Positions 1 through 31,016 are shown, counted from the stretch's first letter. The stretch: DNA of 64,000 nucleotides from a virus (IMGVR_UViG_3300028840_006907:352001-416000), one strand, 5' to 3'. Made by a program: numbers and translations. Notes: generated by a model from the sequence alone, not told the origin.

Positions 1-1
1 T

Positions 2-12431: not shown

Positions 12432-12432
12432 T

Positions 12433-12780
12433 ATGAGTACAACATATATAAACGGTCATCTTCTTTTAGATGGGGATCTCTCTTGTGATGGTGATATCAC
12501 AGTGAGTCCTGCTGGAATTGTCAATCCAATTCCTGATCCGGATTTAATGAAAACATTCTTTTCATATCAATCTAATTCTTATATCACGGCAAATGGGAAG
12601 AGTAGAACTATGACCTCAACTACGGGAGATATTATTGTAAATGGGCTAATTGATGGGGAAGGATTTGGTTTTGAGTCTGACAGAGGTCCTGGAGCGAATA
12701 GTGCCTTAAAGGATTCTTCAGGAAATTTATTACCTGGATTCGGGGCTTCACATGCAAATCTTGGCGCTTTAAGAACATAA
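12433..12780 (+). CDS. Hypothetical Gly/Asp-rich small protein
   Basis: 115-aa ORF starting 2 nt after the previous stop. Confidence 0.5.
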   Translation: MSTTYINGHLLLDGDLSCDGDITVSPAGIVNPIPDPDLMKTFFSYQSNSYITANGKSRTMTSTTGDIIVNGLIDGEGFGFESDRGPGANSALKDSSGNLLPGFGASHANLGALRT

Positions 12781-12800
12781 CTAAAAGGTGGATCTAATCT

Positions 12801-15800
12801 ATGGCTTTTATGTTTAGACTAACAGTTGACAAGGATATGGTCGCCGGAACGGATAAGAGTAATTATCCTTTACTTGTTGATGACCGAGTAGCTAATTTTC
12901 CATCTTCATTCTTTTCGAATGTTGTTGATGCTAGTGGTTTAGATATTAGATATTATTCTGATGCAGCAAAATCAGTAGAGTATAGTAGGGAAATAGTAAC
13001 AGTTGATACTACTGCTCAAACATTTGAATCTTGGGTTCAAATACCATTATTATCTGCTTCCAGTGATTCTACTTTTTATTGTGAAGTGGGGGATGCCACA
13101 TCAGCTAATGATTTTACTATTTGGGATTCTCAAAACCATTATCGTGTATTTCATTTACAAGATGCTTCTGATTCAGGAACTTTACACGATCCTTTAATTG
13201 TAAATAATGCCTCATCTGTATCGAGTAAAATACAGAAAGGTTATGATTTCAGTGGAACCACTCATCATTTACAATGTACTACTAATCCTGATTTTCAGCA
13301 AACATACCCATTTTATATTTCTTCTTGGGTAAACTTAAGATCTCTTATAGTATCGCCTACATTTATTGATAGTGTCTCGTGTATATTTAGTCGTGAAGTA
13401 ATTTGTCAGACGACACTTAGGAATTGGATAGCTTTCAATTTTGGTATTGATAGTTCTCAAAGACTGTCTTGGATGTGTGGAGAAAATCTTTCTGGATGTG
13501 TATTGCCCGGACAACATACTGATTGGTATACTTCTGATAATACGGTTTCATTAAATCAATGGATCCATGTAGGAGCATATATTGAAAATTTATATACAGC
13601 TACTCCAAATCGTGTCGTAAAGTTATTTGTTGATGGGAGTCAGATACCTTCTACAGAAGGTAATCTTGGAGATATTGTAAATTATCACAATACACATAAT
13701 CTAGCTCAATTATCAAGGATTGGTGCTGGGTACCGGCAAACAGGTATACCAATACAAAATTTTGATGGTATTATTGATGAAGTAAGAATAGTCAGTGATG
13801 CAACTATATATTCTAATGGTGACTGGCAACAAACGGAATTTAATAATCAAAATGATCCTTCAACTTATATCTTGGCACCTGATACTACGGGGGTCTATTT
13901 TATTAATGCCGCTGGATCAAGTACTTATCCCTACGATACTGAAGCAAAAGGAGCTGTTAATTTAAAAGATTTACTTGATAGTGTTTCTCTTAATGATGGT
14001 GATATAATAGAAGTCTCTGATGCAGGTGGTACAATAGATGACTCTGCTGCTAGTCCGGGTAATATAAATGCCTCAGTAACAATTAGGTCTTATTCTGGAA
14101 ATACAGGTAATCCAACTTTTAAAGTTCGTGATAGTAGTTATTTATTTTTATTTAATGGTGTGACAGTAGATGGCGTTTATATTCAAAACATAGATATGTA
14201 TAAAGCCGGAACTGGTTCTACCTCTATCGCTTTCATTTGGTTTTTAACTTGTGATATATCAAATTTTGAAGTAACTAATTGTAACTTCTCAATAACCGGA
14301 ACTGCTGGCTCGGTAGCTGCTGTGGAATTAGACACTTCTGATCTTCATGGAACTTCCAGGTTTGAATATAATACAATAACTAAGATGAGTGCTGGACTAT
14401 ATATCAGAGACAATTGTTCTGTCTTTGAAGATTTTAGTGCTTCTTATAATACGTATAATGATATTAGTTATGGTAGTATTAAAGCTTTTCTTCTTGTCGG
14501 AACTCTAAGTACTATACAAAGAATTGTTGTTGATAATAATTATGGTACTGATAGTGGACTAACTTTTGTCTTTATGGCAGGTACTGCAGGTCAAACCTGT
14601 GATGACATTAAAATAAGAAATAATGTTATTAACTCAATGGATTCATTTCATTTTAATACCATAAATTTAGCTGCTCCTACTTTGACGAATTCAAGTGTTG
14701 TTAATAATTCATTATTTCAAGCTGGGGGTATATTTGTAAATAATGCTGATGCTAATCTAGTTGTAGCTAATAATACTCTAAGTCGAGGCTCGGAATCTTG
14801 GTTCATTTATGCTATTCAAGTTACTGCTGCAGCAGGAGCTTCTTTCAATAACAATAATATTTATGGTTATACAAACCCATATTTTGTAAGTGGTGGCATT
14901 ACATATGGTACAAGTAATACACAATTGGATCCTCTTTATGATAGCACTTCTAATCTCCATCTCCAAGCTGGAAGTCCTTGTATAAAAACCGGTGCAAGTT
15001 ACGGAGTCTATTCTTCAGTACCTACAACAGGTTATGATGGTACTGCCCGACAGAGTCTTGTCTGTGATATTGGTGCTTATGAAACTACTCCTAATACTTA
15101 TTTTGTAAATAATGGTGGATCTGCTACATATCCTTTTGATACTGAAATAAAAGGTGCTGTTAATTTCAATCAATTACTTGGTGTTATAACTTTATCAAAT
15201 TGGGATACAGTTGAAGTAAGTAATGCTGGTGGTACAATTGATGATTCGACTGCTTTTCCTAATTTTATTAATGCTGCGGTAACAATTAGATCATATGCTA
15301 ATAATACAGCCAAACCTGTTATTCATGTAAAGAATACTGGAGCTTCAAGAGAGAGCCAGTTTCGTTGGGACAACTATCCTACTGTTTATTCATCAGATGC
15401 TGTAACAATACAAAATTTACAATTATATAAATCAGGTCCAAGTCCAAGTCAGCCCTTTATAAACGCCCGAACATGGGATTTCGATACTTTAGAAGTTACT
15501 GGATGTGATTTTTCAGTGACTGATCCAACTGGTGCTGTAAGTGCTGTACAAGGAGTTTATCTTGATGATTGTAATATCAATCAGAGTTTTACTTATCAGG
15601 ATAGTGACTCTTCCGGTGTAGACGGTGCCCTTTGGATTACTGATACTACTACTAAAACTATACAGGGTGTAAATATATCAGATCATATTTTTGAAGGGAA
15701 ATATTTATTTGTTTATATACAACCCGATACTCTTTCTGATGCTACTATTGAAACTAATGATGTAGGAGGATCAATTTTATGTGCTGGAACTTCTATAAAT

Positions 15801-18800
15801 AGTAGTGTAGCTATTAGGAATAATGTCGTTCGAAGTGTTTCAAGTTTGGCACCTTTAGGAATTTATACCACTGGAGCTGGTCAGAGTGTTGTAAATAATA
15901 CGATCAGAAATATCCCAGTTGGTGGTTATGGTATAAGATATCTTAGTGGTGGTGCAAATAGTTATGTTCTCAATAATATCGTTTATAGAGATGATACTGT
16001 GGGAGCTGCCACTGGAATCGAAACTTCATTTACAGCCGGTGTCATTGATTATAACAATGTTTATAATTTTGGCACACCTTATGTTTCTGGAGCAGTCACT
16101 CCAGGACCAAATAGTATTCAAGTTGATCCAATTTTTATTAGTTCTACAAATCTCCGTTTACAAAGTAATAGTCCTTGTATAAGAACTGGTATAGGTAGTG
16201 GGACTTATTCTGTAGTTCCATCGGTTGGATATGATGGTAATCCAAGATCTTCTGCTACTGTTGATATGGGAGCTTATGAATCTCTTTTACCCTCTGGACT
16301 TTTTCCTCCTCCCCTACCTATTTACGGTAATTATGAAACACCTGTTTCCTTAGGAAGTGGATCAGGTTATTACCACAAGCCTGCTGATTATTTAGGGCAG
16401 GAAACTAAAGGTGGTGGAGCTATTAAATTAGTGGCAAATTCAGGTAATGTTAGTATTAATGGTAGAATCAGAATGGATGGTCAGGATGGGACTATGACCG
16501 GGGGTGCCGCTGGAGGAAGTGTCTGGCTTATTGGTTGGAGAATAGATGGGACTGGAACAATAAGCGCAGATGGTGGAAGGACTCAATTGGTAAGTAATTC
16601 CGGTGGTGGAAGTGGTGGCTATATTTCAATGTGGCATCATAAAACTATAACTTATGATGGAACTGCAACTGTTGATGGTTATGATGGTGCCGGAGATGGA
16701 AAGATATTTATAAAAGAAATTGAGCCCATTTTAGAAGAGCCTTTTACAGGTGATATTTTAAATATAAAATGGTGGGATACTACGAATTCTGTAACCATAG
16801 ATAATGAACTCACTTTTGATTCACCAAATGATAATTATAATTTCCCGGAGACTTTATCGGAATTTAATATTTCAGGAAAAGAAATAAATGTTGAAGCAGA
16901 TTATACTTCACTCACTCCAGACTCATCTCAGAATACGGCAGCATTTCTATTGTGGGTCGATGATTTAAATTGGGCAGGAGTGGCACGGAAATTTAATGGC
17001 TTTTTTGGAATATCCTCTATAAATGGGGCTGTCTCTGTTTCAGGAGTGCCTTTTGATAATACGAATGTAACTTTCCGTATTCTTAAAAATGATAGTACTT
17101 TTACATATCAATTTTGGGATGCCACATCAACTCCTCAAACTATTTATATGGATTATCTGCCAGAATTGGCAAATAGTGTATTTAAAGTGAAGTTAACAGT
17201 TGATAAACCTCCACTGGGTGATTCACTACGTACAAGATATCAAAGATTAACTGCATTTGATATTTCAAATCAATATCTTTATATGGATGGGATTCCTATA
17301 GATCAATCAGCCGTTGCTATGAATTCTATTACTGGTACATCTCATTACTATGGAGAAGATTTTTATGTAGATAATTATCTTTTGAAATGGGATTATACAG
17401 CTTCTAATTTTGCTTCCCTTGCAGCGTGGGGTGATGTTGTCAGATATCAATATGAATATAATGCTCCGCCAACAAATGAGGTTACTGTAGCTTTCGATAA
17501 TGTAAGAGTATATGAAGGAGTTTTAAGTAATGCAGAAACAACTGAACCGGTTATCTATGTTGATCCTAATTATGGCTCAGATACCTGTTCTGGAAGACAG
17601 CTTGATCCTTTGAAAAATTTATTTGTAGCCACGGCTTGGGCTAAAAAAGGAAGTACAGTTGTATTGTATGATGGAACTCATAATCCTACTAAAGTATCCC
17701 GCAAAGACCTGACCATACGAGGAGCTGAAGGAAGTATTGCTGGAATTACTTCGAAAAATGTCCAGGATTCAACAGGTTCTAATTGGGAAAGAGATGCTCT
17801 TTCATTTTATGGCAGTCAAGGTATCGTAGAAAATGTGCATATTTTTGATAGTAGTAGAGGTATTGTAGTTGAGAATGGTAATTATGAAATATCTCGAAAC
17901 ACAATTACAGATACAAGTAATGCTGTAACCTTCGTCAAATGTGATCCTAGAATTATCCGAAATAAAATTTTGGATGTAGATTTTGGTCTTGATTTTACAT
18001 CTTGTCGAATTGCTCCTTATGCTTATGCTAATATTATATCAAATGCAGATGTAGCAGTTCGAGCTAATTTAACAACTGATATGACTTTTTCATGTAATAC
18101 TTTTGACAATGATCAGACCCATTTCTTGATTGATTCAAGTTCATCAATTATTATGTCGTCAAATAATTTGACATATAGTGTTATGCCAGTCATTGTTTCA
18201 ACAGATTCATGGTTTGGTTCTTATTATAATAACTTTTATCCTAATACGACACAATATAATAGGACCCCAGATGATGCTACTAACAATATTGTTGCAAATC
18301 CTTTATACTATGACCGAATTGGAAAGGATTTCCATTTAAATACTGGATCTCCTAATATAGGAACAGGGTCACTTACATATAATGATTATCTCTATGATTT
18401 TGATGGGGCTGATATTCGTAGTGCTGAAATAGGAGCATACCAATATATTGACAGTACTAAAATAACAAGTGACTATTATGTATCAAGTCATGGTAATGAT
18501 TATTGGAATTTCGGAAGACAGACTGACCCATTCCGGACTTTAGATAGAGCTATGGTAGATGCTGATTCTACTGTCCGTATTGATGGTGGTCATTATGATT
18601 CATTCTATCTTAATCTGAGATCACAGGATATACATTTAAATCAACTCTATATTTATTTAGGACCGGAACAACAATTTGTCTCATATATCACTTTAGATGC
18701 AGAAGATGCTTCAAATAAATATGTTCCTTTGCCAAGTTTTGTTGCACCAGATGATGCTTCCCATGTAGCTATGAATATCATAGGAAGTTCGGCACAAATT

Positions 18801-20126
18801 CAGGGAGAGGATTACATAGTAGAATGGGGTCATCTTGTATGGGATACTTATGATCTTGATGGTTTCCTTTCAGCGGGAGATACTTTAAGAGTAATTTTCT
18901 ACGGTCCTTTACAAAAGAAAGCATTAAATAATTTTGTTCTTCATGGGCATTATAGTAACTATAACCAGAATCAGGCAATTTTTGTATCACCGAGTGGAAG
19001 TGATAGCACTGATCTGGGAGGGGACGGGACCAATACAGGTGGAACTGGATCAAGAGATTTACCATACAGAACTATTAGTATGGCTCTGTCTCAATCAAAT
19101 TCGGGTGATAACATTGTAGCTATGGCTGGAGAGTATCCAGTATTTGATGGCCTTCAGGATCGGGTAATCGTTCCTGCCTTTGACCGGACCGCTGCAGTCA
19201 ATAGTTCAAAAAGGGTTTATGAGGATTTCTTTGCACAAAAAGATTTTAGAGCTTATGGTACAACTGAATATGATCCAACACCATGGGAATTTGATTATAC
19301 AGGAAATTCAGAAGTATTCGCAGGAGGAGGATTCTTAAACTTTACCTATGACGGATCGAACAGTGCTACAGCCACATCGACTTTTCAATTTACCAGTGAT
19401 TTTGAAGTAAGGGCTAATTTAAGAAATGCTGTGGATCCAATAACTCTTAGAGTAACTTCACCTGATACAACAGCCTTTATTAGTTATAACGAATCACAGT
19501 TTACTGCTGGTGTTATAAATACTGATAGTACAGTTATATGTAGTGCTGTGGCACATAGTGGTGATACTACTGAATCAGATGTTTTTGTTGTAGAATATAT
19601 TCCTGTAACATCGGATCATACTCGAAATAAATATGCCGAATTATCATATATTCCAGAGGGATCTGATTGTACCAATTTAGCTCTTAATGTTGTTGGGGGT
19701 AATACGCAGGATTTCGGTGAAGATTTCTATGTCCAAGATTCTAAAATTAAATGGGATGGTATGACAATGGATGGTGAAATAGAACCAGGTGAAGTTTTAA
19801 GAGCTGTTTACTTGGATCGACCTTTATCATTGGCTGTTACTGCTTCCATCACTCTTGAGAATGGTCTCTTTACTCTAAAGGCTTATGATGGTACTTGGAA
19901 TACTTTAATGAATAGAAGTTTGGTAGGAGATTATACCGGTAACTGGAATGTATCATTTACAATGGATACACCTAACGAAGAATTTAGTCATAATTGCATT
20001 TATGGTAAAGGATATGCGTCTCAATTCTTGGCAATAGCTGATTCTTTTGAGAATATTCAAGGTTTAGATAAGCCTTTGGCTGTCTCAACTGAGAGACGTA
20101 ATTTAGTTATATATGAAGAGAGGTAA
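12801..20126 (+). CDS. Giant fibre protein (2441 aa): DUF2341/LamG-like N-terminus plus three right-handed beta-helix-type modules
   Basis: N-terminus MAFMFRLTVD...NYPLLVDD...DIRYYSD...VEYSREIV; LamG motif FDGIIDEVRIVSD. Three modules end in the cap motif L(H/R)L..(G/N)SP.I..G..........D..G..R......(D/E)(I/M)GAY(E/Q), the first two being a large internal duplication. Confidence 0.8.
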   Translation: MAFMFRLTVDKDMVAGTDKSNYPLLVDDRVANFPSSFFSNVVDASGLDIRYYSDAAKSVEYSREIVTVDTTAQTFESWVQIPLLSASSDSTFYCEVGDATSANDFTIWDSQNHYRVFHLQDASDSGTLHDPLIVNNASSVSSKIQKGYDFSGTTHHLQCTTNPDFQQTYPFYISSWVNLRSLIVSPTFIDSVSCIFSREVICQTTLRNWIAFNFGIDSSQRLSWMCGENLSGCVLPGQHTDWYTSDNTVSLNQWIHVGAYIENLYTATPNRVVKLFVDGSQIPSTEGNLGDIVNYHNTHNLAQLSRIGAGYRQTGIPIQNFDGIIDEVRIVSDATIYSNGDWQQTEFNNQNDPSTYILAPDTTGVYFINAAGSSTYPYDTEAKGAVNLKDLLDSVSLNDGDIIEVSDAGGTIDDSAASPGNINASVTIRSYSGNTGNPTFKVRDSSYLFLFNGVTVDGVYIQNIDMYKAGTGSTSIAFIWFLTCDISNFEVTNCNFSITGTAGSVAAVELDTSDLHGTSRFEYNTITKMSAGLYIRDNCSVFEDFSASYNTYNDISYGSIKAFLLVGTLSTIQRIVVDNNYGTDSGLTFVFMAGTAGQTCDDIKIRNNVINSMDSFHFNTINLAAPTLTNSSVVNNSLFQAGGIFVNNADANLVVANNTLSRGSESWFIYAIQVTAAAGASFNNNNIYGYTNPYFVSGGITYGTSNTQLDPLYDSTSNLHLQAGSPCIKTGASYGVYSSVPTTGYDGTARQSLVCDIGAYETTPNTYFVNNGGSATYPFDTEIKGAVNFNQLLGVITLSNWDTVEVSNAGGTIDDSTAFPNFINAAVTIRSYANNTAKPVIHVKNTGASRESQFRWDNYPTVYSSDAVTIQNLQLYKSGPSPSQPFINARTWDFDTLEVTGCDFSVTDPTGAVSAVQGVYLDDCNINQSFTYQDSDSSGVDGALWITDTTTKTIQGVNISDHIFEGKYLFVYIQPDTLSDATIETNDVGGSILCAGTSINSSVAIRNNVVRSVSSLAPLGIYTTGAGQSVVNNTIRNIPVGGYGIRYLSGGANSYVLNNIVYRDDTVGAATGIETSFTAGVIDYNNVYNFGTPYVSGAVTPGPNSIQVDPIFISSTNLRLQSNSPCIRTGIGSGTYSVVPSVGYDGNPRSSATVDMGAYESLLPSGLFPPPLPIYGNYETPVSLGSGSGYYHKPADYLGQETKGGGAIKLVANSGNVSINGRIRMDGQDGTMTGGAAGGSVWLIGWRIDGTGTISADGGRTQLVSNSGGGSGGYISMWHHKTITYDGTATVDGYDGAGDGKIFIKEIEPILEEPFTGDILNIKWWDTTNSVTIDNELTFDSPNDNYNFPETLSEFNISGKEINVEADYTSLTPDSSQNTAAFLLWVDDLNWAGVARKFNGFFGISSINGAVSVSGVPFDNTNVTFRILKNDSTFTYQFWDATSTPQTIYMDYLPELANSVFKVKLTVDKPPLGDSLRTRYQRLTAFDISNQYLYMDGIPIDQSAVAMNSITGTSHYYGEDFYVDNYLLKWDYTASNFASLAAWGDVVRYQYEYNAPPTNEVTVAFDNVRVYEGVLSNAETTEPVIYVDPNYGSDTCSGRQLDPLKNLFVATAWAKKGSTVVLYDGTHNPTKVSRKDLTIRGAEGSIAGITSKNVQDSTGSNWERDALSFYGSQGIVENVHIFDSSRGIVVENGNYEISRNTITDTSNAVTFVKCDPRIIRNKILDVDFGLDFTSCRIAPYAYANIISNADVAVRANLTTDMTFSCNTFDNDQTHFLIDSSSSIIMSSNNLTYSVMPVIVSTDSWFGSYYNNFYPNTTQYNRTPDDATNNIVANPLYYDRIGKDFHLNTGSPNIGTGSLTYNDYLYDFDGADIRSAEIGAYQYIDSTKITSDYYVSSHGNDYWNFGRQTDPFRTLDRAMVDADSTVRIDGGHYDSFYLNLRSQDIHLNQLYIYLGPEQQFVSYITLDAEDASNKYVPLPSFVAPDDASHVAMNIIGSSAQIQGEDYIVEWGHLVWDTYDLDGFLSAGDTLRVIFYGPLQKKALNNFVLHGHYSNYNQNQAIFVSPSGSDSTDLGGDGTNTGGTGSRDLPYRTISMALSQSNSGDNIVAMAGEYPVFDGLQDRVIVPAFDRTAAVNSSKRVYEDFFAQKDFRAYGTTEYDPTPWEFDYTGNSEVFAGGGFLNFTYDGSNSATATSTFQFTSDFEVRANLRNAVDPITLRVTSPDTTAFISYNESQFTAGVINTDSTVICSAVAHSGDTTESDVFVVEYIPVTSDHTRNKYAELSYIPEGSDCTNLALNVVGGNTQDFGEDFYVQDSKIKWDGMTMDGEIEPGEVLRAVYLDRPLSLAVTASITLENGLFTLKAYDGTWNTLMNRSLVGDYTGNWNVSFTMDTPNEEFSHNCIYGKGYASQFLAIADSFENIQGLDKPLAVSTERRNLVIYEER

Positions 20127-20128
20127 TA

Positions 20129-21496
20129 GTGCCAGTATATCATTCAGGAAATTTAAGAGATACTGATAGGCCAGAATGGAATTATCCATTAAGACCTCAG
20201 GTTGCAGATTTAACAAAGCCTTTGGCTCCCCGAAATCTTATGGTAACAAGTCCTTATGATGTTGGAAAATTGGATATTCGTTGGGATAATCCTAATATTC
20301 TTCCACAAAATAGTGGATTAAATATTGTAGGATGTAATGTATACCGTTCTATTGATAGTCCTTTCAGATTTGTAAAAATTAATGAGACACCCGTTACCGT
20401 ACTTTTTTATCGTGATGAGACAAAAGAAACTTTGGTAACAAATGAAAATGCTACTCCTACAATACGTCATGATTTAGTTCCAGAAGAGAAATGGTCTGTA
20501 TGGGCTCAAAGAAGACCTATAGTAAGACCTGATTCAAATGGTGTTACAACTGATAGAGTTCAAGATATTTTACTTGAAATAGATAATGGTGATGGTACAT
20601 TTCTTGAAGTACCAGCTTTTTCTGTAAATGGAAAAACAGGTGAAATTGTACTTATAAGAACTCCTGTTTATAATTACGAAGTTAGCCAAATAGTTCCTCC
20701 ACGTTTACCATATCCACCTAATGGTCGCGTCAGAATTACATATAGATATTTAGAACATTCGGTAATTACTGTATTAAATCAAAGAATTTATTATAAAGTG
20801 ACAACAGTAGCAGTAGATCCGGATGATCCTGCTTCTTTTATTGAAACTCCGTTGGATGAGGTTTCATCACGTACTGCTTTTGATGTAGAATCGATTGATT
20901 ATATTTGGAGAGAAGGAATTTTACGTAATCGTTGGTTATTAGAGCAGAGCGGTGAAAGAGTGAAGATATTTATACGTAGATGGATGGGAGAAAAGTGTCC
21001 ATCTCATCAGACAAATTATGGACAAAGCTATAATGATTGTACTGATTGTTATGGTACTAATATTGTAGGTGGGTATGATGGTCCTTATGATGTGATAATA
21101 GCACCACCAGAGTCAGAGAAGATGATAGAATTAGCGGACATGGGACTTCATATTACTTACGATTGGGCAACTTGGATGGGTCCCTATCCGCTTCTAAATG
21201 AACGTGATGTTATTGTTCGTCAGAATAATGAGCGTTATGTTGTAGGTCCTGTGACTCCTCAGGGATCACGAGGATGTATTTATCAGCATCATTTTACTAT
21301 GAGCTATATTGACCAAGGAGATATTAGATATCAGATACCGATTGAAGGTGGGGAAACTAGTGTGCCTTCTTCATATGATCCTTATCGTGAAACTGCTCCG
21401 ACTGATGCAAGTCCAGCAATAAACGATAAGCCTGAAATTCCTGATGACAAGATCATTAGAGGCCGTACAGTAACCTTCGAAAATATTACCTATTAA
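20129..21496 (+). CDS. Hypothetical protein (455 aa), possible fibre-associated
   Basis: GTG start 3 nt after the stop of the 2441-aa gene with AGAGG upstream; no recognisable motifs. Confidence 0.6.
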   Translation: MPVYHSGNLRDTDRPEWNYPLRPQVADLTKPLAPRNLMVTSPYDVGKLDIRWDNPNILPQNSGLNIVGCNVYRSIDSPFRFVKINETPVTVLFYRDETKETLVTNENATPTIRHDLVPEEKWSVWAQRRPIVRPDSNGVTTDRVQDILLEIDNGDGTFLEVPAFSVNGKTGEIVLIRTPVYNYEVSQIVPPRLPYPPNGRVRITYRYLEHSVITVLNQRIYYKVTTVAVDPDDPASFIETPLDEVSSRTAFDVESIDYIWREGILRNRWLLEQSGERVKIFIRRWMGEKCPSHQTNYGQSYNDCTDCYGTNIVGGYDGPYDVIIAPPESEKMIELADMGLHITYDWATWMGPYPLLNERDVIVRQNNERYVVGPVTPQGSRGCIYQHHFTMSYIDQGDIRYQIPIEGGETSVPSSYDPYRETAPTDASPAINDKPEIPDDKIIRGRTVTFENITY

Positions 21497-21582
21497 CTAA
21501 TTGATTTTGAAGAAGTTACAAGAACTGCTCAAAAAACATCTTAATTTATCCTTCGCTCATTCAGTATATATAGTATAAGGAT

Positions 21583-21592
21583 CTATATAAAA
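21583..21592 (+). promoter_or_regulatory. Candidate -10-like TATATAAAA element upstream of thyX
   Basis: CTATATAAAA about 26 nt upstream of the ATG, with AAAGGA SD between; position only. Confidence 0.25.
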
Positions 21593-21613
21593 AATAATAG
21601 AAAGGAATAATAT

Positions 21614-23116
21614 ATGGATGTAACATTAGCAGGATTTAATGTCGATACAAATGTCCTTAGGGAGATGGAAGAAATCACCGGTAAACGGGATGATCTTACC
21701 CCAGAAGTTTTATCTGCCTCATATGCCCGGATAAGTCGGGATCCTCGGCCAATTGGTGAATTAAGATTAGATTCTAAAAACGAAGTAGAAAAAGCTCGGA
21801 AATCAAATTCAAGTATCATTTTTAAAATGGGCCATCATTCTGTAGCGGAGCATGCTGTATTTAATCTTGATGTTGTAGGACTTTCTCGATATGCTATTGA
21901 AGAGTTGGAAAAATTTCGATTATGTTCATATACAGAAAAATCTCAACGTTATATAACCCTTGATGATGACTATGTTGTTCCTCCTGAGATTGCTGGATCA
22001 AAGTTTGAAGATGAATTTAGGGAAACTATTAAAATGCAGAATGAAGCATACCATGAATTTTACGGTGCTTTAAAAGAACATATCTTTAAAAAGCATGCTG
22101 ATCTTGCCAGTGATCCAAAGAATAAGAATTTATTAGAAGGTTGGGCAAAGGAAGATGCCAGGTATTTAGTAAGCATTGCGACTGAAGCTCAGGTTGGAGT
22201 GACCGTCAATGCCCGAAACTTGGAACTGATGTTAAGAAGATTTGCTTCTAATCCGTTGCAGGAAGTCCAGGAACTGGGGAGAAAAATTTACCAGGAGGTG
22301 GAAAAAATTGCCCCTTCTATAATTATTTTCCATGAAGGTAATGAGTATGACCGTGATACATATCCTAGACTTGAAAAAGTAGGACGTGATTTATTTAATG
22401 GAAGCCATGTCTCATTTTTGGAAGGAGATGTCTCATTAATTGAATTTGATGAAGAAGCAGATGAAACTATAGCTGCATCATTACTTTATAAAGGTCTGAA
22501 TATCCCTTATAAAGATGTCATAACATTTGTTTATGATATGAGTGAAGAGGATACTGATAAAATTGTTAATGCTGTTTGGGAAGATGCCCAATTATATGAT
22601 TCGGCCCTCAGAGAATACGAATTTGCCAATCTTACCTATGAAGTCTGTTTATCTTCCTCTTGTTTTGGTCAACTAAAACGTCATCGTATGTCTTCTATTA
22701 TTGCTCAACCATACAATCCGAACAGAGGTGTGACTATTCCAGAATCGATTAAAGAGATTGGTATGGAAAAGAGATTTCAGGAGATTATTAAAAAGACAGA
22801 TGATGTATTTTTTAAGGTATACGAAGATTTACCATTGGTAGCTCCTTATATATTAACAAATGCTCATAAAAGACGGGTCATAATTCGGGTAAATGCTCGT
22901 GAGTTATATCATATGTCCCGATTAAGAGAGGATAATCACGCTCAATGGGATATAAAAAATGTGGTGACTAGAATGTGCATGTTGGCTCAGACAGAGATGC
23001 CATTTACATTTGCTCTTCTTTGTGGTAAAGACATGTATAATATGACATATAAAAATCATTTCGGTAATGAACCAAAAGTGAAAGAGGTGAAATTACCAGG
23101 TAAGCGTAAATTTTAA
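21614..23116 (+). CDS. thyX: FAD-dependent thymidylate synthase ThyX-like, tandem two-domain form (500 aa)
   Basis: C-terminal half has canonical ThyX signatures (QLKRHRMSS, VNARELYHMSRLREDNHAQWDIKN, PFTF). N-terminal half is a second Thy1-like domain (GHHSVAEHAVFNL...KFRLCSYTEKSQRY...VNARNLELMLRRFASNPLQEVQ) with RHR replaced by KFR. Confidence 0.8.
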   Translation: MDVTLAGFNVDTNVLREMEEITGKRDDLTPEVLSASYARISRDPRPIGELRLDSKNEVEKARKSNSSIIFKMGHHSVAEHAVFNLDVVGLSRYAIEELEKFRLCSYTEKSQRYITLDDDYVVPPEIAGSKFEDEFRETIKMQNEAYHEFYGALKEHIFKKHADLASDPKNKNLLEGWAKEDARYLVSIATEAQVGVTVNARNLELMLRRFASNPLQEVQELGRKIYQEVEKIAPSIIIFHEGNEYDRDTYPRLEKVGRDLFNGSHVSFLEGDVSLIEFDEEADETIAASLLYKGLNIPYKDVITFVYDMSEEDTDKIVNAVWEDAQLYDSALREYEFANLTYEVCLSSSCFGQLKRHRMSSIIAQPYNPNRGVTIPESIKEIGMEKRFQEIIKKTDDVFFKVYEDLPLVAPYILTNAHKRRVIIRVNARELYHMSRLREDNHAQWDIKNVVTRMCMLAQTEMPFTFALLCGKDMYNMTYKNHFGNEPKVKEVKLPGKRKF

Positions 23117-23126
23117 AGAGAATCAT

Positions 23127-23804
23127 ATGAATATAAATCTGAATATTGTCCAACCACCTCATGTAGTCTTTCTCCTTTCAGGGGAATCTTTTCCAGCTTT
23201 GTTTTTCGATTGTTTTTTTAATTTATTGGATTATTGTAACAGGCAGAATATCGGATATACAATAATTAGGCGGTATTCTCCTGTTGTTTATTTTGTTCGA
23301 AACATGTGTTTAGGTGGAAATGTTTTGAGAGGGGAGAATCAGAAACCCTTTGATGGTAAGATAAACTACACACATTTAATGTGGATTGATAATGATATTG
23401 CATTTAAACCCGCTCAATTTCAATCTTTGTTGAACTCAAATATGGATATTATAGCCGGGGCTTATAAGATGGCTGATGGGAGACATTATGCCATTGTTGA
23501 AAATTGGGATGAAGAATATTTTCAAAAAAATGCTTCTTTTAAATTTCTTACTGATGAAGACATCAGGGGTAGAAAAGGTTTTATTGATGTAGATTATACT
23601 GGTTTAGGTTTTATGCTTGTAAAAAAGGGTGTTTTTGAATCTTTGAAATATCCTTGGTTCAGACCTAAATTCTATAAATTTGGTGATTGTTTTGATTTCT
23701 GTTCGGAGGATGTCGGGTTCTGTCGGGATATAAAAGAAAAGGGTTATAAAATCTATATCGATCCGAGAATAATTGTGGGTCATATTAAAGATATTGTTAT
23801 TTAA
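23127..23804 (+). CDS. Putative GT-A fold (GT2-like) glycosyltransferase
   Basis: WIDNDIAF (DxD-like) and GLGFMLVKKGVFESL...SEDVGFCRDIKEKGYKIYIDPRIIVGH match the usual GT2 C-terminal pattern; starts 11 nt after the thyX stop. Confidence 0.55.
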   Translation: MNINLNIVQPPHVVFLLSGESFPALFFDCFFNLLDYCNRQNIGYTIIRRYSPVVYFVRNMCLGGNVLRGENQKPFDGKINYTHLMWIDNDIAFKPAQFQSLLNSNMDIIAGAYKMADGRHYAIVENWDEEYFQKNASFKFLTDEDIRGRKGFIDVDYTGLGFMLVKKGVFESLKYPWFRPKFYKFGDCFDFCSEDVGFCRDIKEKGYKIYIDPRIIVGHIKDIVI

Positions 23805-23852
23805 TTTCAATTAATAATCTTCTAATACGCTGATAGTAGCATATTGCCAATA

Positions 23853-23880
23853 TTGATTATAAATAACTAAATTGTATAAT
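23853..23880 (+). promoter_or_regulatory. Candidate sigma70-like promoter with extended -10 (TTGATT-16 nt-TGTATAAT)
   Basis: Sits immediately upstream of the AGGAGG SD of the 23895 gene; sequence resemblance only. Confidence 0.3.
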
Positions 23881-23894
23881 TCTAGGAGGTATAT

Positions 23895-24269
23895 ATGTCA
23901 TTAAAAGAGGCATCCCAGGAACTTCTAAAACTTGCTGATGAAATTGAAAAAGAAGCAAATGAAGTGACTCAATTTGTGTGTGATAAGTGTAATCATACTG
24001 CAACTCTGGCAACAATAAATCAGAAAAGAGAAGCTGTAGCAAAAGAAGCTGGTGAAAAGATAGTTGTAACAGCTTTGACAGTTGAGGACAAAGTGCATTG
24101 TCCTGCATGTGAGGGTGTCATGGCTTACAAAGAAACAGAAGCCAGTGCTCCTTATTATCTTGACACTGAAAAAAAGGCTGAGGATGATAACGGTGAAGAA
24201 GAGGAAGAGAAAGAAAAGAAAGCTTCCGAACCTATCGATTATGATTCACTAAAAAGATATTCAAGCTAA
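23895..24269 (+). CDS. Zn-ribbon protein (CxxC...CxxC) with acidic C-terminal tail
   Basis: CDKC...CPAC; AGGAGG SD 6 nt upstream; terminator downstream. Confidence 0.6.
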   Translation: MSLKEASQELLKLADEIEKEANEVTQFVCDKCNHTATLATINQKREAVAKEAGEKIVVTALTVEDKVHCPACEGVMAYKETEASAPYYLDTEKKAEDDNGEEEEEKEKKASEPIDYDSLKRYSS

Positions 24270-24320
24270 TTTAGCTAGATTTTCTCTTACATACAGTTTT
24301 TAAAAAGATGGTCTTCTAAT

Positions 24321-24350
24321 GGAGGGAGTGGTTGCCCTCCATTTTTCTTT
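24321..24350 (+). terminator. Intrinsic terminator
   Basis: GGAGGG-AGTGGTTG-CCCTCC stem-loop followed by ATTTTTCTTTC. Confidence 0.55.
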
Positions 24351-24605
24351 CTTATAGTGGTTTTTCACTTCTTCATTGTAGTATTTATTTGTATTCCATT
24401 TAGAAATTAGTTATAATTATATATACTTCTCCCCGTCCTTTTACGGGGCTGTCTCACACACACAGATTCTCAAGTACGGAAAATGATTAAATACCCTCGG
24501 CTCTTTCCGGGGATTCAGGGAAAGATTCACAATTTTTCCCTTTTCTTTTACCTCCTCCAATTTGATAATGTATTAATATTTCCCTGACTATATATAGGAG
24601 TATAT

Positions 24606-25166
24606 ATGGTCAGAATATTAGGAAACTCCCCGGAACGGATTGAAATACGTGATCTGCAAGATGTAGTTTATTACCGTCAAATCAAAGAGTTTACAGATCA
24701 ACAGTATGAACTTTCTAAAGATTTAAAACGGGAAATAGATAAAGGCCGTTTAATCAAGATAGATAAAAATGAGATCTATCGAGGTTCGGGAGAAATATCT
24801 GTCCATCAAATAGTTGAGAGTAACAATTCACTTAGTATCAGTGATCTTAAGACAGCGATACGTGAAGTCCTCCCTGAGATGAAAGGGAACAATGGGGCTA
24901 CTGAGAAATCAGTAAAGGATGCTGTCAGAGAAGTTATTCCTGTATTAGTCGAAATGGTTCGGCAAGAAGTTTCTAAAGTGAGTGTAGTCAGGGAAGAAGT
25001 AAAACCAAAGAAAACAACGACAAGTAGTGAATTCCTATTTCCGACTTATACTCCAAGTATCTCTGATACAGGTCTTAAGAGTAACATAAAAATAAAGGAA
25101 AAAGAAGTCTCTGGTGATTCAGTAGCAGATAGTCTTGCTATTCTTCGTCAGATTAAGAAAAAATAA
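24606..25166 (+). CDS. Hypothetical protein upstream of the actin-like gene (possible adaptor)
   Basis: 186 aa, charged; AGGAG SD; no motif recognised. Confidence 0.55.
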   Translation: MVRILGNSPERIEIRDLQDVVYYRQIKEFTDQQYELSKDLKREIDKGRLIKIDKNEIYRGSGEISVHQIVESNNSLSISDLKTAIREVLPEMKGNNGATEKSVKDAVREVIPVLVEMVRQEVSKVSVVREEVKPKKTTTSSEFLFPTYTPSISDTGLKSNIKIKEKEVSGDSVADSLAILRQIKKK

Positions 25167-25216
25167 CAAATAATAAATCTAAATAAAATTTTTTAATCAA
25201 TCAAGGAGGTTATAGT

Positions 25217-26233
25217 ATGAGTTGTGGCGTGGATATAGGAACATGTTTCCTTGTAAGTGCTAGAAATGATGATAATAATCAAATTCAAATAAAGTCTATT
25301 CGGGATGCTTTTCTTGACATGGAGAACAACCCCCAAGTCAAAAACATGATGAAAATGTCAGGTGCAAATTTTATTGAATCTGACGACATTCTTTACATAA
25401 TTGGTGATTCCTCAGTGGTAGTAGCAAACATATTCCAGAAAGAAGCTCGTAGACCATTGAGTCGGGGTGTTATTTCTCCTGGTGAACTTGAAGCTGAGAA
25501 AATTCTGTTGGTTTTGATAAAGGATATATTGGGGAATTGTAAAGTGCAGGATGAAACTTGTTATTATTCGGTTCCTGCCGAGCCCATAGATCATGAAGCT
25601 GATGTGATCTATCACCAAGCTATGTTTAGTAAACTTATTGGTTCATTAGGTTACAAGCCAGTTGCTTTAAATGAGGCAGCAGCAATCATTTATAGCAATT
25701 GTGGAAAGGAAAAATTTTCGGCGATATCTATTTCTTTTGGTGCCGGTTTAACAAATGTTTGTCTTATGTATCAAACGATTATTGGTATGGCTTTTAGTGT
25801 AAATAAAGCTGGAGATAATATTGATGACGGTGCTGCTCAGGCTCTGGGAACTACTTCCAGTAGAATACAGTCAATAAAAGAAAAGGGTATAAATCTTCTT
25901 GATCCTAATGAAGGTGATCCGAAGACTTTCCGGGAACGTGAAGCTATTATCATTTATTATAAAAGTTTGGTTTTATATGTACTTGATAAAATCAAAGAGG
26001 AATTTTTGAAACGTCAAGGTACGATTGAATTACCTAATGCTATTCCGATTGTGCTTTCAGGTGGAACTAGTTTGCCGAAGAATTTTAAAGAGTTTTTTGA
26101 AGCCGGTTTTAATGAAGTAAAGGATAAATTCCCAATTCCGATTTCAGAGATTAGAATGGCAGAACAACCATTAAATGCAGTAGCACAGGGTCTATTAATT
26201 GCCGCTATGAACCATGATGAAGGGTCAAAATAA
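25217..26233 (+). CDS. Actin-fold ATPase (MreB/ParM/Alp-like)
   Basis: Phosphate-1 GVDIGTCFLVSA, phosphate-2-like ISISFGAGLTNVCLM, adenosine motif IVLSGGTSLP; 338 aa; AAGGAGG SD. Confidence 0.6.
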   Translation: MSCGVDIGTCFLVSARNDDNNQIQIKSIRDAFLDMENNPQVKNMMKMSGANFIESDDILYIIGDSSVVVANIFQKEARRPLSRGVISPGELEAEKILLVLIKDILGNCKVQDETCYYSVPAEPIDHEADVIYHQAMFSKLIGSLGYKPVALNEAAAIIYSNCGKEKFSAISISFGAGLTNVCLMYQTIIGMAFSVNKAGDNIDDGAAQALGTTSSRIQSIKEKGINLLDPNEGDPKTFREREAIIIYYKSLVLYVLDKIKEEFLKRQGTIELPNAIPIVLSGGTSLPKNFKEFFEAGFNEVKDKFPIPISEIRMAEQPLNAVAQGLLIAAMNHDEGSK

Positions 26234-27579
26234 TGTATCAACGCTTGATGTATGCAATAAAAAGACGGATTTTGGATGAGAGTGAAGATGCATTCAAAGA
26301 ACATCCTGCTTTTTCTGAAAAAGTAAGAGTTTACAATAAATTTCCCTATGATGAACGGGTTCAATTTGGGATAATTCTCCGAAATGCTTCTTCTTCATTG
26401 ATACGTCTTTCTGCTGATAATTTTATGTCAGATCTTTATTCTCATGTCAAAATAGCTAAACAAGGAACTCATCCTGGAATAGCTATTGAATGGGTGAGAG
26501 AGAATGAAGGAAATATTACTGAATATGTTGAGGAGGATGTTTCTTCTCAGTTAGATCCGACTAGAAGGATATTTACAACGAATTATCCTATTACTGCCGG
26601 ACCAAATAATACTGATTATGCTACTAGTCCGGGACAGGTCAGAGTGACTCTAGATGGTACTAAGGTGATGCCTCAATTTGTTTATGGTGAAGATAGCGAG
26701 GTATGGTTAACACAGGCTCCGAATGCTGGGACGGTTGCGAAGATATGGTATAATCGTCGTGCTATTGTACCACCTAGTATTCATATTGTTGAATTTACTG
26801 AGGATAATCAGTTTATAGTAGGTATGATTTATGTGATTGATAATGAACTTTTGATAGAAGAAACGACTGGGCTTGAGACTACGGTTAATTTGGTTAATAG
26901 TAATGTTGATACTAATTCTGAAGAAATTTGGTTGACCTATAAAAATGGTACAAAAATAGTGGCTTTGGAAAATGGTGTTGATTACAGTATTAATTATGCT
27001 ACTGGATTGATTACTTTTCTTCAACCATTACAAAGCAATTATAGTATTTACGCTGATTATCGTTATCAGCCTCCTGGAAATGTTACAGGTCCTTATGTAT
27101 TTACTGAGTATCAAGAAAATCATGAGGCAATTCCAGGAGTAGTCCTCTCAATTGGTCGTCGGGCTAAGAAGGGTGATAAGCAGGCTGTTATTGTTTCTCA
27201 ATCGAATGAACTGCAGGCTAAAATTTATGGTGGTCATTGGGAAATTTCATTGGATTTAGCGGTGATTGCTAAAGATCCGATGCAGATGGAACAAATGACT
27301 GATCATATTATCTCTTATTTGTGGGGTGAGAGAAAAAATAGGTTGGAGTATGAGGGAATCGCTTTAAATTCAGTAGAGCCTACTGGAGAGACAGAGGAGA
27401 CTCATGTAGAATCAACTGGTGATCTTTATTACGAATCGGGTGTTTCCATAAATCTTCAATCTGAATGGCAGAGATTTGTGCCATATAATCCGATTTATCG
27501 ATTAAGAGATATTAACATGATAGCTGATTTAAGACCAGTCATAAAGGGTCCGATCATCAATTTCGAGAGGTTAACTTGA
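26233..27579 (+). CDS. Hypothetical virion/tail-associated protein (448 aa)
   Basis: Start overlaps the actin-like stop (TAATG); contains a weak copy of the beta-rich module also seen in the sheath (VRVTLDGTKV...VWLTQAPNAGTVAKIWY). Confidence 0.6.
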   Translation: MYQRLMYAIKRRILDESEDAFKEHPAFSEKVRVYNKFPYDERVQFGIILRNASSSLIRLSADNFMSDLYSHVKIAKQGTHPGIAIEWVRENEGNITEYVEEDVSSQLDPTRRIFTTNYPITAGPNNTDYATSPGQVRVTLDGTKVMPQFVYGEDSEVWLTQAPNAGTVAKIWYNRRAIVPPSIHIVEFTEDNQFIVGMIYVIDNELLIEETTGLETTVNLVNSNVDTNSEEIWLTYKNGTKIVALENGVDYSINYATGLITFLQPLQSNYSIYADYRYQPPGNVTGPYVFTEYQENHEAIPGVVLSIGRRAKKGDKQAVIVSQSNELQAKIYGGHWEISLDLAVIAKDPMQMEQMTDHIISYLWGERKNRLEYEGIALNSVEPTGETEETHVESTGDLYYESGVSINLQSEWQRFVPYNPIYRLRDINMIADLRPVIKGPIINFERLT

Positions 27580-27624
27580 TTTAATTATCTTTTAATAATT
27601 GATACATATTGTTAGGAGTTTATA

Positions 27625-28044
27625 ATGCCTCTTTATGAATATAAGTGTAAAAAATGTGAATTTGAATTTGAAGAACTCATCCTGAATAAGGAAGGTAGTC
27701 TTTTAATAAAATGTAGGAGATGTGGAGCTGAAGCTGAAAGAAAGATGAGTTCATTTTCATCAGTAGTTCAGGGAAGTTCCAATGAATCGGTTGATGTTAA
27801 AATCGGTCGGGAGGCAGATAAAAGATGGGAATTATACCATAATCGCCAGGAAAAGAGGCGTGCTGGTAAAGAGTTAAAAGAAGTAAAGTTATCAAAAAAA
27901 GGTGGTCAGTATAGACCTGTGATGGCTTTAGGAAGTGAAAAGACAATTGAAAATAGAAATAAGTATTCTGAGTCCCTGCAACAACATAGGCAGGATAGAG
28001 AAAAACGTGGTCAGTCTCAATTTAGTGAAACTGGCTCATTTTAA
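27625..28044 (+). CDS. FmdB-family Zn-ribbon protein
   Basis: MPLYEYKCKKCEFEFEE...CRRCGAE matches the FmdB N-terminal signature. Confidence 0.65.
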   Translation: MPLYEYKCKKCEFEFEELILNKEGSLLIKCRRCGAEAERKMSSFSSVVQGSSNESVDVKIGREADKRWELYHNRQEKRRAGKELKEVKLSKKGGQYRPVMALGSEKTIENRNKYSESLQQHRQDREKRGQSQFSETGSF

Positions 28045-28156
28045 CCTCTTAAATAATAAATAATATATCAAATAAAATTTTATTAAATCCAAATAAGATA
28101 AGAGATAAAAAAATTTAATTAAAATTGTAAAAACAAAAATATGTAGGAGGTTAACT

Positions 28157-30958
28157 ATGGGACTTGGCCCTTTTGATTCGTTTTCGTTTCCTGATGTGTA
28201 TACGAAAACATTGAATGAAGCGCCTACCGTAACTGCGTCTGGAGATATCCGCATTCCTGCTTTTATTGGAGTAGCTGATGAAAATGTTCCTGTTAATAAC
28301 TATGAAATGATTCGCGGTTCAAGTGCATTGGCCGATAATAAAATAGTTAGGGAAAATGTTTCCAGTCAGGTAACAGGTAGTAACCGTAATTTTAGAGTCT
28401 CTTACTATCCTATTGTAAAAGGGGATGGTAATGGTACCACTACGACAGATCCAAACGATGTAACGGTTGAGGTTGATGGAGAAGCAGTTGCAGTCTCATC
28501 AGTTGACGGAGAGAATGGTTGGATTTATCTAGTAGGTATCCCACCAACAGGAAGTACAGTGCTTATCACTTATTATTTCAAACGTAATGATACATTACAT
28601 ACATTGGAAGATCTCAGTGATCAGGTTGATGGTACACGTACTGTTTTTCAAACACATTATACTCCGATTGTAACAGGTGATGGTAGTGGTACAACTACAA
28701 CAACTACTTCTCATGTTACAGTTTTAGTAAACAATTCAGCGGTTACTGTTTCTGCAGTGGATGGAGATTCAGGTCAAATTACTCTAGCTTCTGCACCATC
28801 GGTTGGTCAGACAGTGAAAGTAACTTATTATTCTAATGAATGGCAAGATACGGCAGATATCTTACCTTCACCTTATGTTACAGAAGTAACACAGGTAGGT
28901 TATAGCCCAGGTACATCTGATTTTATTGATGAGACAGACTATGTTCTTGATACAACAGGGAATTTTAGTACAATAAACTGGGGCCATTCAGTAAAAGTTA
29001 GTGCCGGTACAACAACAACAGGTGGTGAAGCTTTTGATGATACACAAATCACTACTACTCTGTTTGATAATCGGACATTTCGTAGAGCTATGACAGGTAC
29101 TGTTGATGGTACTAATGCAAATTTTGTGATGGAAGCTACTCCGAAGAGTGGTGAAGGTCGTGGTATTGATACTGATGATCCCGATCTTGTTACAGCTTAT
29201 TATGGTACTAATCCAACAGATGCTACAGTTATAGATGTAATTCAATTAACAGCTTCTTCAAGAACGGCTGTTTTGGCATCTGCTCCTCCAGCAGGAAATA
29301 ATGTCTATATCACTCAATATAGCAATTTACTTCCTGATGATACTTGGACTTTAACTGATAAGACTTCCGGTGCTACAGGTATTGGAGTTTATGATGTTGA
29401 GGGTACTAATGCTGGTACGGCTATGGACGTTCAGTGGTCAACAACTGATACAACAGTTGCTGATCCAGATTTCTCTTCTGAGAATGTGACTTATCCGAAT
29501 GGTACCGGTGCAGGTAACAGTGATGCTCAAGTGTCGCCTGGATTTGCTGTTCAAGAAACGGTATCTTTAACTTTTGCCGATGCTACCACTTATACTGTAA
29601 GTTCAGACCAGACAAGTACTGGTTCTGGTTCAGGTGGCGATAATACAGGATATTTAAATCAAACTTACATTGACAGTGTAACGGGTTTCCGTATTACTGT
29701 TAATGAGGGTACATTAGTTATATATCAGGCGGGTGATAAATTAGGTTATACTGTTAATCCTGATTTTGTCACTTCTACGACACCAACAAGAGCAATACCA
29801 GGTGTTCGTGTAAGAGTATCTAATACTACTGATGTAGTGGTAGGAGATACAGGTTTAGTAAAAACGTATAATTTATCAGGACAAGAACCGAATGTTGGAG
29901 ATTTCTATTATGTCTCTTTTACTGAAGCTGTACAATTTGATTCTGATGGTATTCTCATAGGTGGAGCTAAATTATACAGTCAGGAGAAAAATGTAATAGC
30001 TGATACAGGTCCTTTATCTATAACAAATAATCTTGGAATGGCCGCTCATCTTGCTTTTTTGAACGGTTCAAGTTTAATTGCCTTACTACAGATAGAGAAG
30101 ACATCCGGTGCTGATGATGCCCCTGATTCAAGGTATATTGCGGGTATTGATTATTTCAATGAGCCCATGGAAGGTGGTACAAGACCAGCTCTTATGCAAC
30201 CAGTAACAACTTCATCTGCGGTTATCAATTATTTGAGAACTTCAAATACCATTCAATCTGGTATACGTTATGCGAATGAACGTTTCTCTTATTTTGGTTT
30301 CCCGACAAATACGTTACCAACGAGTGCTCAGACTTTTGCTCGATCAATGAATAATGAGTTGATGGTAGCTGTTTATCCTGATGGTGCTGTGACAACTATC
30401 ACGGATGAATTAGGTAATGAGACTGAATATTTGGTAGATGGAGCTTATATGGCAGCAGCGATTGCTGGAAGAGATACTTCACCTGCTTTCGATGTAGCAG
30501 AACCATTGACAAGAAAACCTATTGTAGGATTCCGTCGTTTATTCCGTAGAATGGATTCGGTAACTGCTGCACAAACGGCAAATGCTGGTATAACTCTTCT
30601 TGAAGAGTTAGCTGCAGGTATTGAGGTTAGATTTGCTTTGACAACTGATATATCATCGGTATTAACGAGAACTCCTTCAGTTATTAGAATAAAGCAATTT
30701 GTTCAGAGAGGGGCTCGTTCGGTATTACAGCCTTATATTGGTTCCAAGCTATTAGTTCAACGTAGAGCAGAAATAGAGCAGACTCTTAAGTCTTATCTAG
30801 CTGCCTTACAGCAAGCTAATATTATTACTGGTTGGACAGGTGTAAAGGCTGAACTGGATCCGAATGATCCGACGATTATTAATGTGGAAGCTTTTTATAG
30901 CCCAGTATTTCCGTTGTTATGGATTGTGATTACTTTTAATCTTCGTTCTAATATATAA
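28157..30958 (+). CDS. Contractile tail sheath protein (933 aa) with inserted tandem beta-rich domains
   Basis: Sheath-like N-terminus (PDVYTKTLNEAPTVTASGDIRIPAFIGVA) and C-terminal region (INYLRTSNTIQSGIRYANER...); gene order sheath-tube-chaperones-TMP; GGAGG SD. Confidence 0.65.
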   Translation: MGLGPFDSFSFPDVYTKTLNEAPTVTASGDIRIPAFIGVADENVPVNNYEMIRGSSALADNKIVRENVSSQVTGSNRNFRVSYYPIVKGDGNGTTTTDPNDVTVEVDGEAVAVSSVDGENGWIYLVGIPPTGSTVLITYYFKRNDTLHTLEDLSDQVDGTRTVFQTHYTPIVTGDGSGTTTTTTSHVTVLVNNSAVTVSAVDGDSGQITLASAPSVGQTVKVTYYSNEWQDTADILPSPYVTEVTQVGYSPGTSDFIDETDYVLDTTGNFSTINWGHSVKVSAGTTTTGGEAFDDTQITTTLFDNRTFRRAMTGTVDGTNANFVMEATPKSGEGRGIDTDDPDLVTAYYGTNPTDATVIDVIQLTASSRTAVLASAPPAGNNVYITQYSNLLPDDTWTLTDKTSGATGIGVYDVEGTNAGTAMDVQWSTTDTTVADPDFSSENVTYPNGTGAGNSDAQVSPGFAVQETVSLTFADATTYTVSSDQTSTGSGSGGDNTGYLNQTYIDSVTGFRITVNEGTLVIYQAGDKLGYTVNPDFVTSTTPTRAIPGVRVRVSNTTDVVVGDTGLVKTYNLSGQEPNVGDFYYVSFTEAVQFDSDGILIGGAKLYSQEKNVIADTGPLSITNNLGMAAHLAFLNGSSLIALLQIEKTSGADDAPDSRYIAGIDYFNEPMEGGTRPALMQPVTTSSAVINYLRTSNTIQSGIRYANERFSYFGFPTNTLPTSAQTFARSMNNELMVAVYPDGAVTTITDELGNETEYLVDGAYMAAAIAGRDTSPAFDVAEPLTRKPIVGFRRLFRRMDSVTAAQTANAGITLLEELAAGIEVRFALTTDISSVLTRTPSVIRIKQFVQRGARSVLQPYIGSKLLVQRRAEIEQTLKSYLAALQQANIITGWTGVKAELDPNDPTIINVEAFYSPVFPLLWIVITFNLRSNI

Positions 30959-30976
30959 GGGTTTAACGAGGTATTA

Positions 30977-30996
30977 GGGGACTTTTCGGAGTCCCC
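30977..30996 (+). other. RNA hairpin after the sheath gene (weak terminator or stability element)
   Basis: GGGGACT-TTTCGG-AGTCCCC, 7-bp stem, no T-tract. Confidence 0.3.
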
Positions 30997-31016
30997 CTTA
31001 AACAGGAAATAATCAA

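Follow-up and report, generated by a model that had tools for sequence, protein, structure and literature searches.

A huge-phage gene at 21614..23116 (+) encodes a ThyX protein of 500 aa in which two Thy1 domains lie in tandem, and the residues that contact FAD, dUMP and uracil in single-domain ThyX are divided between these domains, both here and throughout the family to which the protein belongs. Positions are those of the window, the whole 64,000-nt stretch of DNA that was analysed. With a probability of about three in four, we infer that the protein is a flavin-dependent thymidylate synthase of this two-domain family whose split residue sets would be reunited in a dimeric pseudo-tetramer with two composite live sites. 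The gene itself is a new phage-borne member of a large, already annotated family, and in this window thyX is an ordinary auxiliary gene of nucleotide metabolism.

The open reading frame (500 aa plus stop codon) begins with ATG, preceded at ~9 nt by an AAAGGA ribosome-binding site, and its assignment as a tandem thyX follows from the ORF call together with Pfam and NCBIfam: the product scores 198.5 bits over two stretches against PF02511 (Thy1; cut-off 24.8) and 127.5 bits against the thyX equivalog TIGR02170 (cut-off 87.9). The N-type Thy1 domain occupies aa 29-235 (21698..22318, +; 127 bits in Pfam; 98.5% hhalign probability against T. maritima ThyX) and the C-type Thy1 domain aa ~287-463 (22472..23002, +; 77 bits in Pfam; 98.9% hhalign probability against T. 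maritima ThyX). Between them, the conservation profile delimits a poorly conserved linker (aa 236-272; 22319..22429, +) that contains a helix (aa 244-261) predicted in the AlphaFold2 secondary structure. The C domain carries an extra helical insertion at aa ~295-337 (AlphaFold2 helices 299-337), at the place of the GHxSxxEH loop of single-domain ThyX. The AlphaFold2 monomer model, built on 41 homologues (mean pLDDT 77, pTM 0.75), is of moderate confidence, which falls to low over aa 12-73 and 104-111; all of its listed matches in the PDB are ThyX chains (probability 1.00, TM 0.62-0.71 per target). Pfam, the PDB matches of this model and the hhalign comparison with T. maritima ThyX agree in giving the N-terminal half a Thy1 fold. 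Significant matches in a PDB sequence search are solely single-domain ThyX proteins (M. tuberculosis, T. maritima, Corynebacterium, H. pylori and PBCV-1), and neither that search nor the structure search with the AlphaFold2 model found a two-domain ThyX structure in the PDB. A 78-aa minus-strand ORF (21583..21819) overlapping the start of thyX was dismissed as being without support, and a scan for promoters and terminators around the gene gave nothing better than shuffled sequence.

A BLASTP comparison between the two halves found nothing meaningful (E 0.039), and profile comparison identifies the halves as homologous (97% probability, E 1e-10, 20% identity by hhalign). Because this homology is visible to profiles without similarity in BLAST, the duplication that produced the two Thy1 domains is ancient, and the domains are very divergent paralogues that have shared out the residues of the active site.

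Equivalences between residues were read from the hhalign profile alignment; a plain three-sequence MAFFT alignment had misplaced the C-half RHR. Segments of the T. maritima reference sequence match the PDB alignments, and its numbering reproduces published residue numbers. On the + strand of the N half lie GHHSVAEH (aa 73-80, 21830..21853); R92 (21887..21889), counterpart of a dUMP contact in M. tuberculosis; KFR at the place of RHR (aa 100-102, 21911..21919), with the first two positions degenerate and the third Arg kept; the dUMP loop SYTEKSQRY (aa 105-113, 21926..21952); R183 (22160..22162); and ASNPLQEVQ (aa 211-219, 22244..22270), a degenerate counterpart of R(A)DSHAQWE that is variable in the family. 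On the + strand of the C half lie Q353 and the RHR (22670..22687, the RHR itself being aa 356-358 at 22679-22687); MSSIIAQPY (22688..22714), the counterpart of the dUMP loop, in which Ser-x-Arg is missing and the Tyr (Y367) is kept; and RLREDNHAQWDI (22919..22954), which contains DNHAQWDI (aa 440-447). Every motif that the sequence-only reading had listed, namely GHHSVAEH, KFR for RHR, the SQRY loop and ASNPLQEVQ for DSHAQWE in the N half and RHR and DNHAQWDI in the C half, is where it had been placed; the further claim that the C half lacks a Ser-x-x-Arg-Tyr stretch is right about Ser and Arg, but the Tyr remains and the canonical stretch is Ser-x-Arg-Tyr.

Residue by residue (T. maritima numbering unless stated), the N half has H74 for His53, S76 for Thr55 (Ser71 in M. 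tuberculosis), E79 for Glu58, R92 for M. tuberculosis Arg87, E97 for Gln75, K100, F101 and R102 for Arg78, His79 and Arg80, E108 for Glu86, S110 for Ser88, R112 for Arg90, Y113 for Tyr91, R183 for Arg147, R201 for Arg165, R209 for Arg174 and N213 for His178. The C half has lost the equivalents of His53, Glu86, Ser88 and Arg90 and has R333 for Thr55, E336 for Glu58, S348 for M. tuberculosis Arg87, Q353 for Gln75, R356, H357 and R358 for Arg78, His79 and Arg80, Y367 for Tyr91, P411 for Arg147, R429 for Arg165, R438 for Arg174 and H442 for His178. The ThyX motif RHR-x7-S(-x-R-Y) is complete in neither domain, the N half reading KFR-x7-SQRY and the C half RHR-x8-Y, and becomes complete solely when both halves are combined. 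Each of the FAD, dUMP and uracil contacts of T. maritima ThyX (H53, T55, Q75, R78, H79, R80, E86, S88, R90, Y91, R147, R165, R174 and H178) can be found in at least one half and is conserved across the two-domain family; with each half aligned to characterised ThyX, the catalytic residues are thus not all found in one half. The complementarity of motifs first noticed in the sequence is real and wider than had been described, as it extends to the equivalents of Arg147, M. tuberculosis Arg87, His53 and Ser/Thr55 (N half only) and likewise to that of Gln75 (C half only).

The same division holds across 138 diverse full-length two-domain representatives that share 36-49% identity with the query. 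Among their N halves, H74, R92, R102, E108, S110 and R112 are present in all 138, E79, H80, R183 and R201 in 137, Y113 in 134 and S76 in 133. In the C half, R356, H357, R358 and E336 are present in all 138, Q353, R438 and Q444 in 137, W445 in 136, R429 in 135, Y367 in 134, R333 in 133 and H442 in 111. S-x-R-[YFH] occurs in 138/138 N halves and S-x-R-[YF] in 0/138 C halves, whereas RHR occurs in 138/138 C halves and in only 3/138 N halves. Because this pattern recurs in 138/138 diverse representatives, it is far beyond chance, and the complementarity is an old, family-wide division of labour rather than a peculiarity of this gene.

Positions not kept in one half vary freely. The N-half counterpart of Arg78 is H in 31, K in 25, R in 21, S in 19, A in 13 and E in 10 of the 138 representatives, that of His79 is H in 39, F in 35 and S in 19, among others, and the RHR site as a whole carries 40 different xxR tripeptides; R102 is near-invariant despite its hypervariable neighbours K100 and F101. 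The N-half position equivalent to His178 is likewise variable (S in 53, H in 49, N in 10, and others), and the one equivalent to Arg174 is R or K in just 103/138. In the C half, the position of Arg147 (P411) is variously P, E, D, A, S or Q, and that of M. tuberculosis Arg87 is Ala or Ser. Such variability bears on whether all four sites of an assembly of two chains might be active, with K100 replacing Arg78 and R208/R209 replacing Arg174 so as to rescue the sites centred on N halves. K100 and R209 are basic, and R102, the counterpart of Arg80, is invariant; yet the Arg78 and His79 positions take 40 combinations that include Ser, Ala, Glu and Phe, and the C-half partner loop that these sites would need is without Ser or Arg in every member, which leaves four active sites highly improbable.

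Each half is thus strictly conserved exactly where its partner varies, a pattern of subfunctionalisation under selection and not of decay. "Decay", the term of the sequence-only reading, is the wrong word: strong purifying selection holds the retained residues invariant. A comparison of two related phages shows purifying selection on each half, as dN/dS between the query and a 72%-identical phage copy is ~0.17 overall, 0.13 in the N half and 0.21 in the C half, rough figures with synonymous sites near saturation. The absence of RHR and of the HAQWE motif from the N half, together with the good score of the C half against T. maritima ThyX in the region of the C-terminal motif, could be read to mean that the N half serves as an inert structural pseudo-domain while catalysis falls to the C half alone, for instance by way of C-C contacts within a higher oligomer. 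We find this scarcely credible, for the C half is without equivalents of Ser88, Arg90, Arg147 and M. tuberculosis Arg87 in 138/138 representatives, the N half holds precisely these residues invariant, Ser88 and Tyr91 are described as critical for activity (PMC11940539), and it is the N half that has the lower dN/dS.

Published structures indicate how a division of residues between two catalytically necessary halves could work. In ThyX of M. tuberculosis and H. pylori, each active site is built from three subunits; in the M. tuberculosis enzyme, subunit A contributes RHR (95-97) to the phosphates and ribityl of FAD and Arg95 and Arg199 to dUMP, subunit B contributes Ser71 and Arg190 to FAD, and subunit C contributes Arg87, Ser105, Arg107 and, as a lid, Tyr108 to dUMP (PMC6514825). 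In PBCV-1 ThyX, monomer A provides Gln75 and Arg182 and monomer B provides Ser88 and Gln89 (PMC3498832). In the query and 138/138 relatives, the A set is confined to the C half and the N half alone carries the C set, so that a complete site can form only between halves. The C half would accordingly take the role of subunit A, with Gln75, the RHR for the phosphates and ribityl of FAD, and Arg174/His178 for uracil. The N half would take the role of subunit C, with the Glu86/Ser88/Arg90/Tyr91 loop, Arg147 and the equivalent of M. tuberculosis Arg87, all binding dUMP, and probably also that of subunit B, with His53 and Ser55 facing flavin and folate. The proposal that the fused halves build composite sites is supported by this match between the subunit split of the M. 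tuberculosis and PBCV-1 enzymes and the residue split of the relatives, and we regard the composite-site model as well supported by conservation and by the published subunit assignments.

Two 500-aa chains would then form a pseudo-tetramer that copies the 222 homotetramer of ThyX and has two complete sites for FAD, dUMP and folate. One C half and two N halves would make up each of these sites, which are predicted to synthesise dTMP, while the other two site positions would be degenerate. Two N halves and two C halves can be placed in a 222 pseudo-tetramer in three ways, of which the first gives no complete site, the second gives two complete sites with role B from the N half and the third gives two complete sites with role B from the C half. 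The second arrangement is favoured because only the N half holds the equivalents of Ser71/Thr55 and of nearby His53 invariant, His53 being put in role B only on account of its place in that loop, two residues away from Ser71/Thr55. This preference is weakened by the conservation in the C half of R333, E336, N427 and R429. These four residues (22610..22621 and 22892..22900) are nearly invariant and would line the degenerate sites. Because they are still conserved, along with Y367 of the C half and R102 of the N half, the "dead" sites may keep some function, or the C half may supply role B.

The loss of two sites does not by itself explain nearly invariant residues in degenerate sites. They could reflect re-use of the degenerate positions for another ligand (the reductant NADPH, a regulator or an allosteric nucleotide), such that fusion would separate functions; the lining residues are conserved (N-half R102 in 138/138; C-half E336 in 138/138, R429 in 135/138, Y367 in 134/138 and R333 in 133/138), and NADP+ can occupy the FAD site of M. 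tuberculosis ThyX (PMC6514825). On the other hand, conserved lining residues could be purely structural, and we consider such re-use unlikely. If true, the fused enzyme would keep apart functions for which homotetrameric ThyX has a single pocket.

Compared with the dimeric pseudo-tetramer with two composite sites proposed here, single-domain ThyX (T. maritima TM0449, M. tuberculosis Rv2754c, H. pylori and PBCV-1 A674R) has the same fold, the same catalytic residues and active sites to which three subunits contribute. It is, however, a homotetramer in which four equivalent sites draw on a complete residue set in every subunit, whereas in the query the set is split over two covalently linked, non-identical domains, from four of which no more than two complete sites would be expected.

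The two-domain form is widespread. A search of 5.8 billion proteins found more than 4,600 homologues, the best 120 of which are all ~500 aa long (coverage 99-100%, identity 58-72%), and many of these 120 are annotated as FAD-dependent thymidylate synthase in metagenome-assembled genomes of Omnitrophota, Elusimicrobia, Latescibacteria and the PVC group. An exhaustive HMMER scan of cluster representatives (50% identity) returned 445 clusters at E <= 1e-30. At least 443 species carry a two-domain ThyX on the chromosome, and DPANN archaea have it as well. Cellular two-domain proteins, from Omnitrophota, Elusimicrobia, Aminicenantes/Acidobacteriota, Syntrophales, Margulisiibacteriota, WOR-1/WOR-3, Nanoarchaeota and Woesearchaeota, have the same length of ~500 aa, the same order of N-type and then C-type domain and the identical complementary residue pattern; they differ from the query in being encoded on chromosomes, whereas the query copy sits in a tail-gene module of a huge phage. 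An apparent natural split of a two-domain thyX into adjacent genes of 250 and 253 aa (GCA_023228195.1) was rejected as an artefact of an N run in the scaffold, through which the gene (3001..4524 of the extracted locus, L093) reads as a single 507-aa ORF; N-run artefacts of this kind could pass for naturally split ThyX.

Among the matches listed, the nearest cellular homologues are those of Omnitrophota (56-61% identity over the full length). On this basis, the gene was probably acquired by the huge phage from an Omnitrophota-related host. The relatives also bear on the suggestion that the protein is a ThyX-fold enzyme with another substrate, producing a modified pyrimidine for phage DNA or methylating UMP like PolB. 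The phage context is suggestive of such a role, and ThyX-fold enzymes with other substrates, such as PolB, exist (PMC5003785); nevertheless, every canonical contact residue for dUMP, FAD and uracil is somewhere in the protein, the nearest relatives are bacterial chromosomal genes annotated as thymidylate synthase, and the TIGR02170 equivalog score is above its cut-off. A different substrate is accordingly quite unlikely.

Thymidylate synthase of the two-domain type also recurs among viruses. An identical ThyX (P0001) is present on contigs of 388,651 bp (JGI sample 3300017963) and of up to 469,617 bp, a related contig (L092) carries the 72%-identical thyX copy in the same gene order, and nine more viral contigs from IMG/VR, several of which span 180-440 kb, encode a full-length two-domain ThyX at 35-41% identity; the contig of the window was absent from these IMG/VR matches. 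The residue pattern is kept in these nine copies and in that of the syntenic L092, with one deviation, a His at the Gln75-equivalent position in one contig (L083). A tblastn search of 50,697 GenBank phage records gave only single-domain ThyX matches and one weak match covering 80% of the query. ORF20 of the Microcystis phage Ma-LMM01 (BAF36111.1, 491 aa, "putative thymidylate synthase"; AB231700.1, 15717..17192, -) was missed by tblastn and found solely by structure search (476 columns). Like the query, it is phage-borne, joins an N-type to a C-type domain and has the same split of motifs, with GHGS and STRY but no RHR in the N half and RHR in the C half; the N profile recognises its N half at 98.4% and the C profile its C half at 91.6%, with cross-matches below 1%. 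Unlike the query, to which it is ~17% identical, it has Met at the R102 position of the N half and adjoins other genes in place of a tail module.

The window (1..64000) is a huge-phage module for tail and baseplate: every large ORF is on the + strand, no tRNA genes were found in the 64,000 nt, and the + strand encodes a weak match to the C-terminal domain of tail sheath (28157..30958), matches to a tape-measure protein family (34727..38035) and to a baseplate-hub family (41941..43872), two Laminin_G_3 proteins (4009..6234 and 10383..12431) and very large ORFs with no Pfam match, for example those of 2441 aa (12801..20126) and 1305 aa (6401..10318). Together with a PHROG-1574/glycosyltransferase-like gene (23127..23804), thyX occupies 21497..23804 in the middle of this structural module, and its placement there is stable, because it is the same in L092. 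A 124-aa ORF (23895..24269, +) has two CxxC pairs (CDKCNH ... CPACEG), an acidic tail and no Pfam match, and L092 has an ORF of the same length at the same position. Three genes downstream of thyX, and conserved in the syntenic L092, a gene at 25217..26233 (+) encodes a 338-aa protein that matches Volactin (PF25216) over its full length (216 bits) and MreB weakly. Volactin is an actin homologue named from Haloferax, and the product of this gene is thus an actin-like protein encoded by the huge phage.

The two-domain form has been noticed before. The ThyX of Chlamydia trachomatis treated by Griffin et al. 2005, reportedly of ~530 aa, may be of the two-domain type. Chlamydial ThyX was omitted from the first phylogenies because its sequence identity was too low (PMC6171736). 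Valas and Bourne (2009; PMC3224940) noted a duplication of ThyX in Chloroflexi and remarked that the duplicated form "has not been characterized". Full-text literature searches for a ThyX that is tandem, duplicated, fused or pseudo-tetrameric yielded nothing beyond that remark, the words "tandem" and "fused" are absent from the 2018 review by the discoverers of ThyX, and we found no biochemical study of a two-domain ThyX in the literature and no paper on the division of labour among its residues.

ThyX is a drug target and a textbook case of active sites shared between subunits. In the two-domain family, duplication and fusion have fixed an asymmetric division of the catalytic residues, from which half the number of sites and an obligatory partnership of N and C halves are predicted; the residue equivalences given above make the composite-site model directly testable. 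Members of the family would serve as thymidylate synthase in many uncultured phyla (Omnitrophota, Aminicenantes, Syntrophales and DPANN archaea) and in several huge phages, and the position of Omnitrophota as closest cellular relatives offers a clue to the host of this one.
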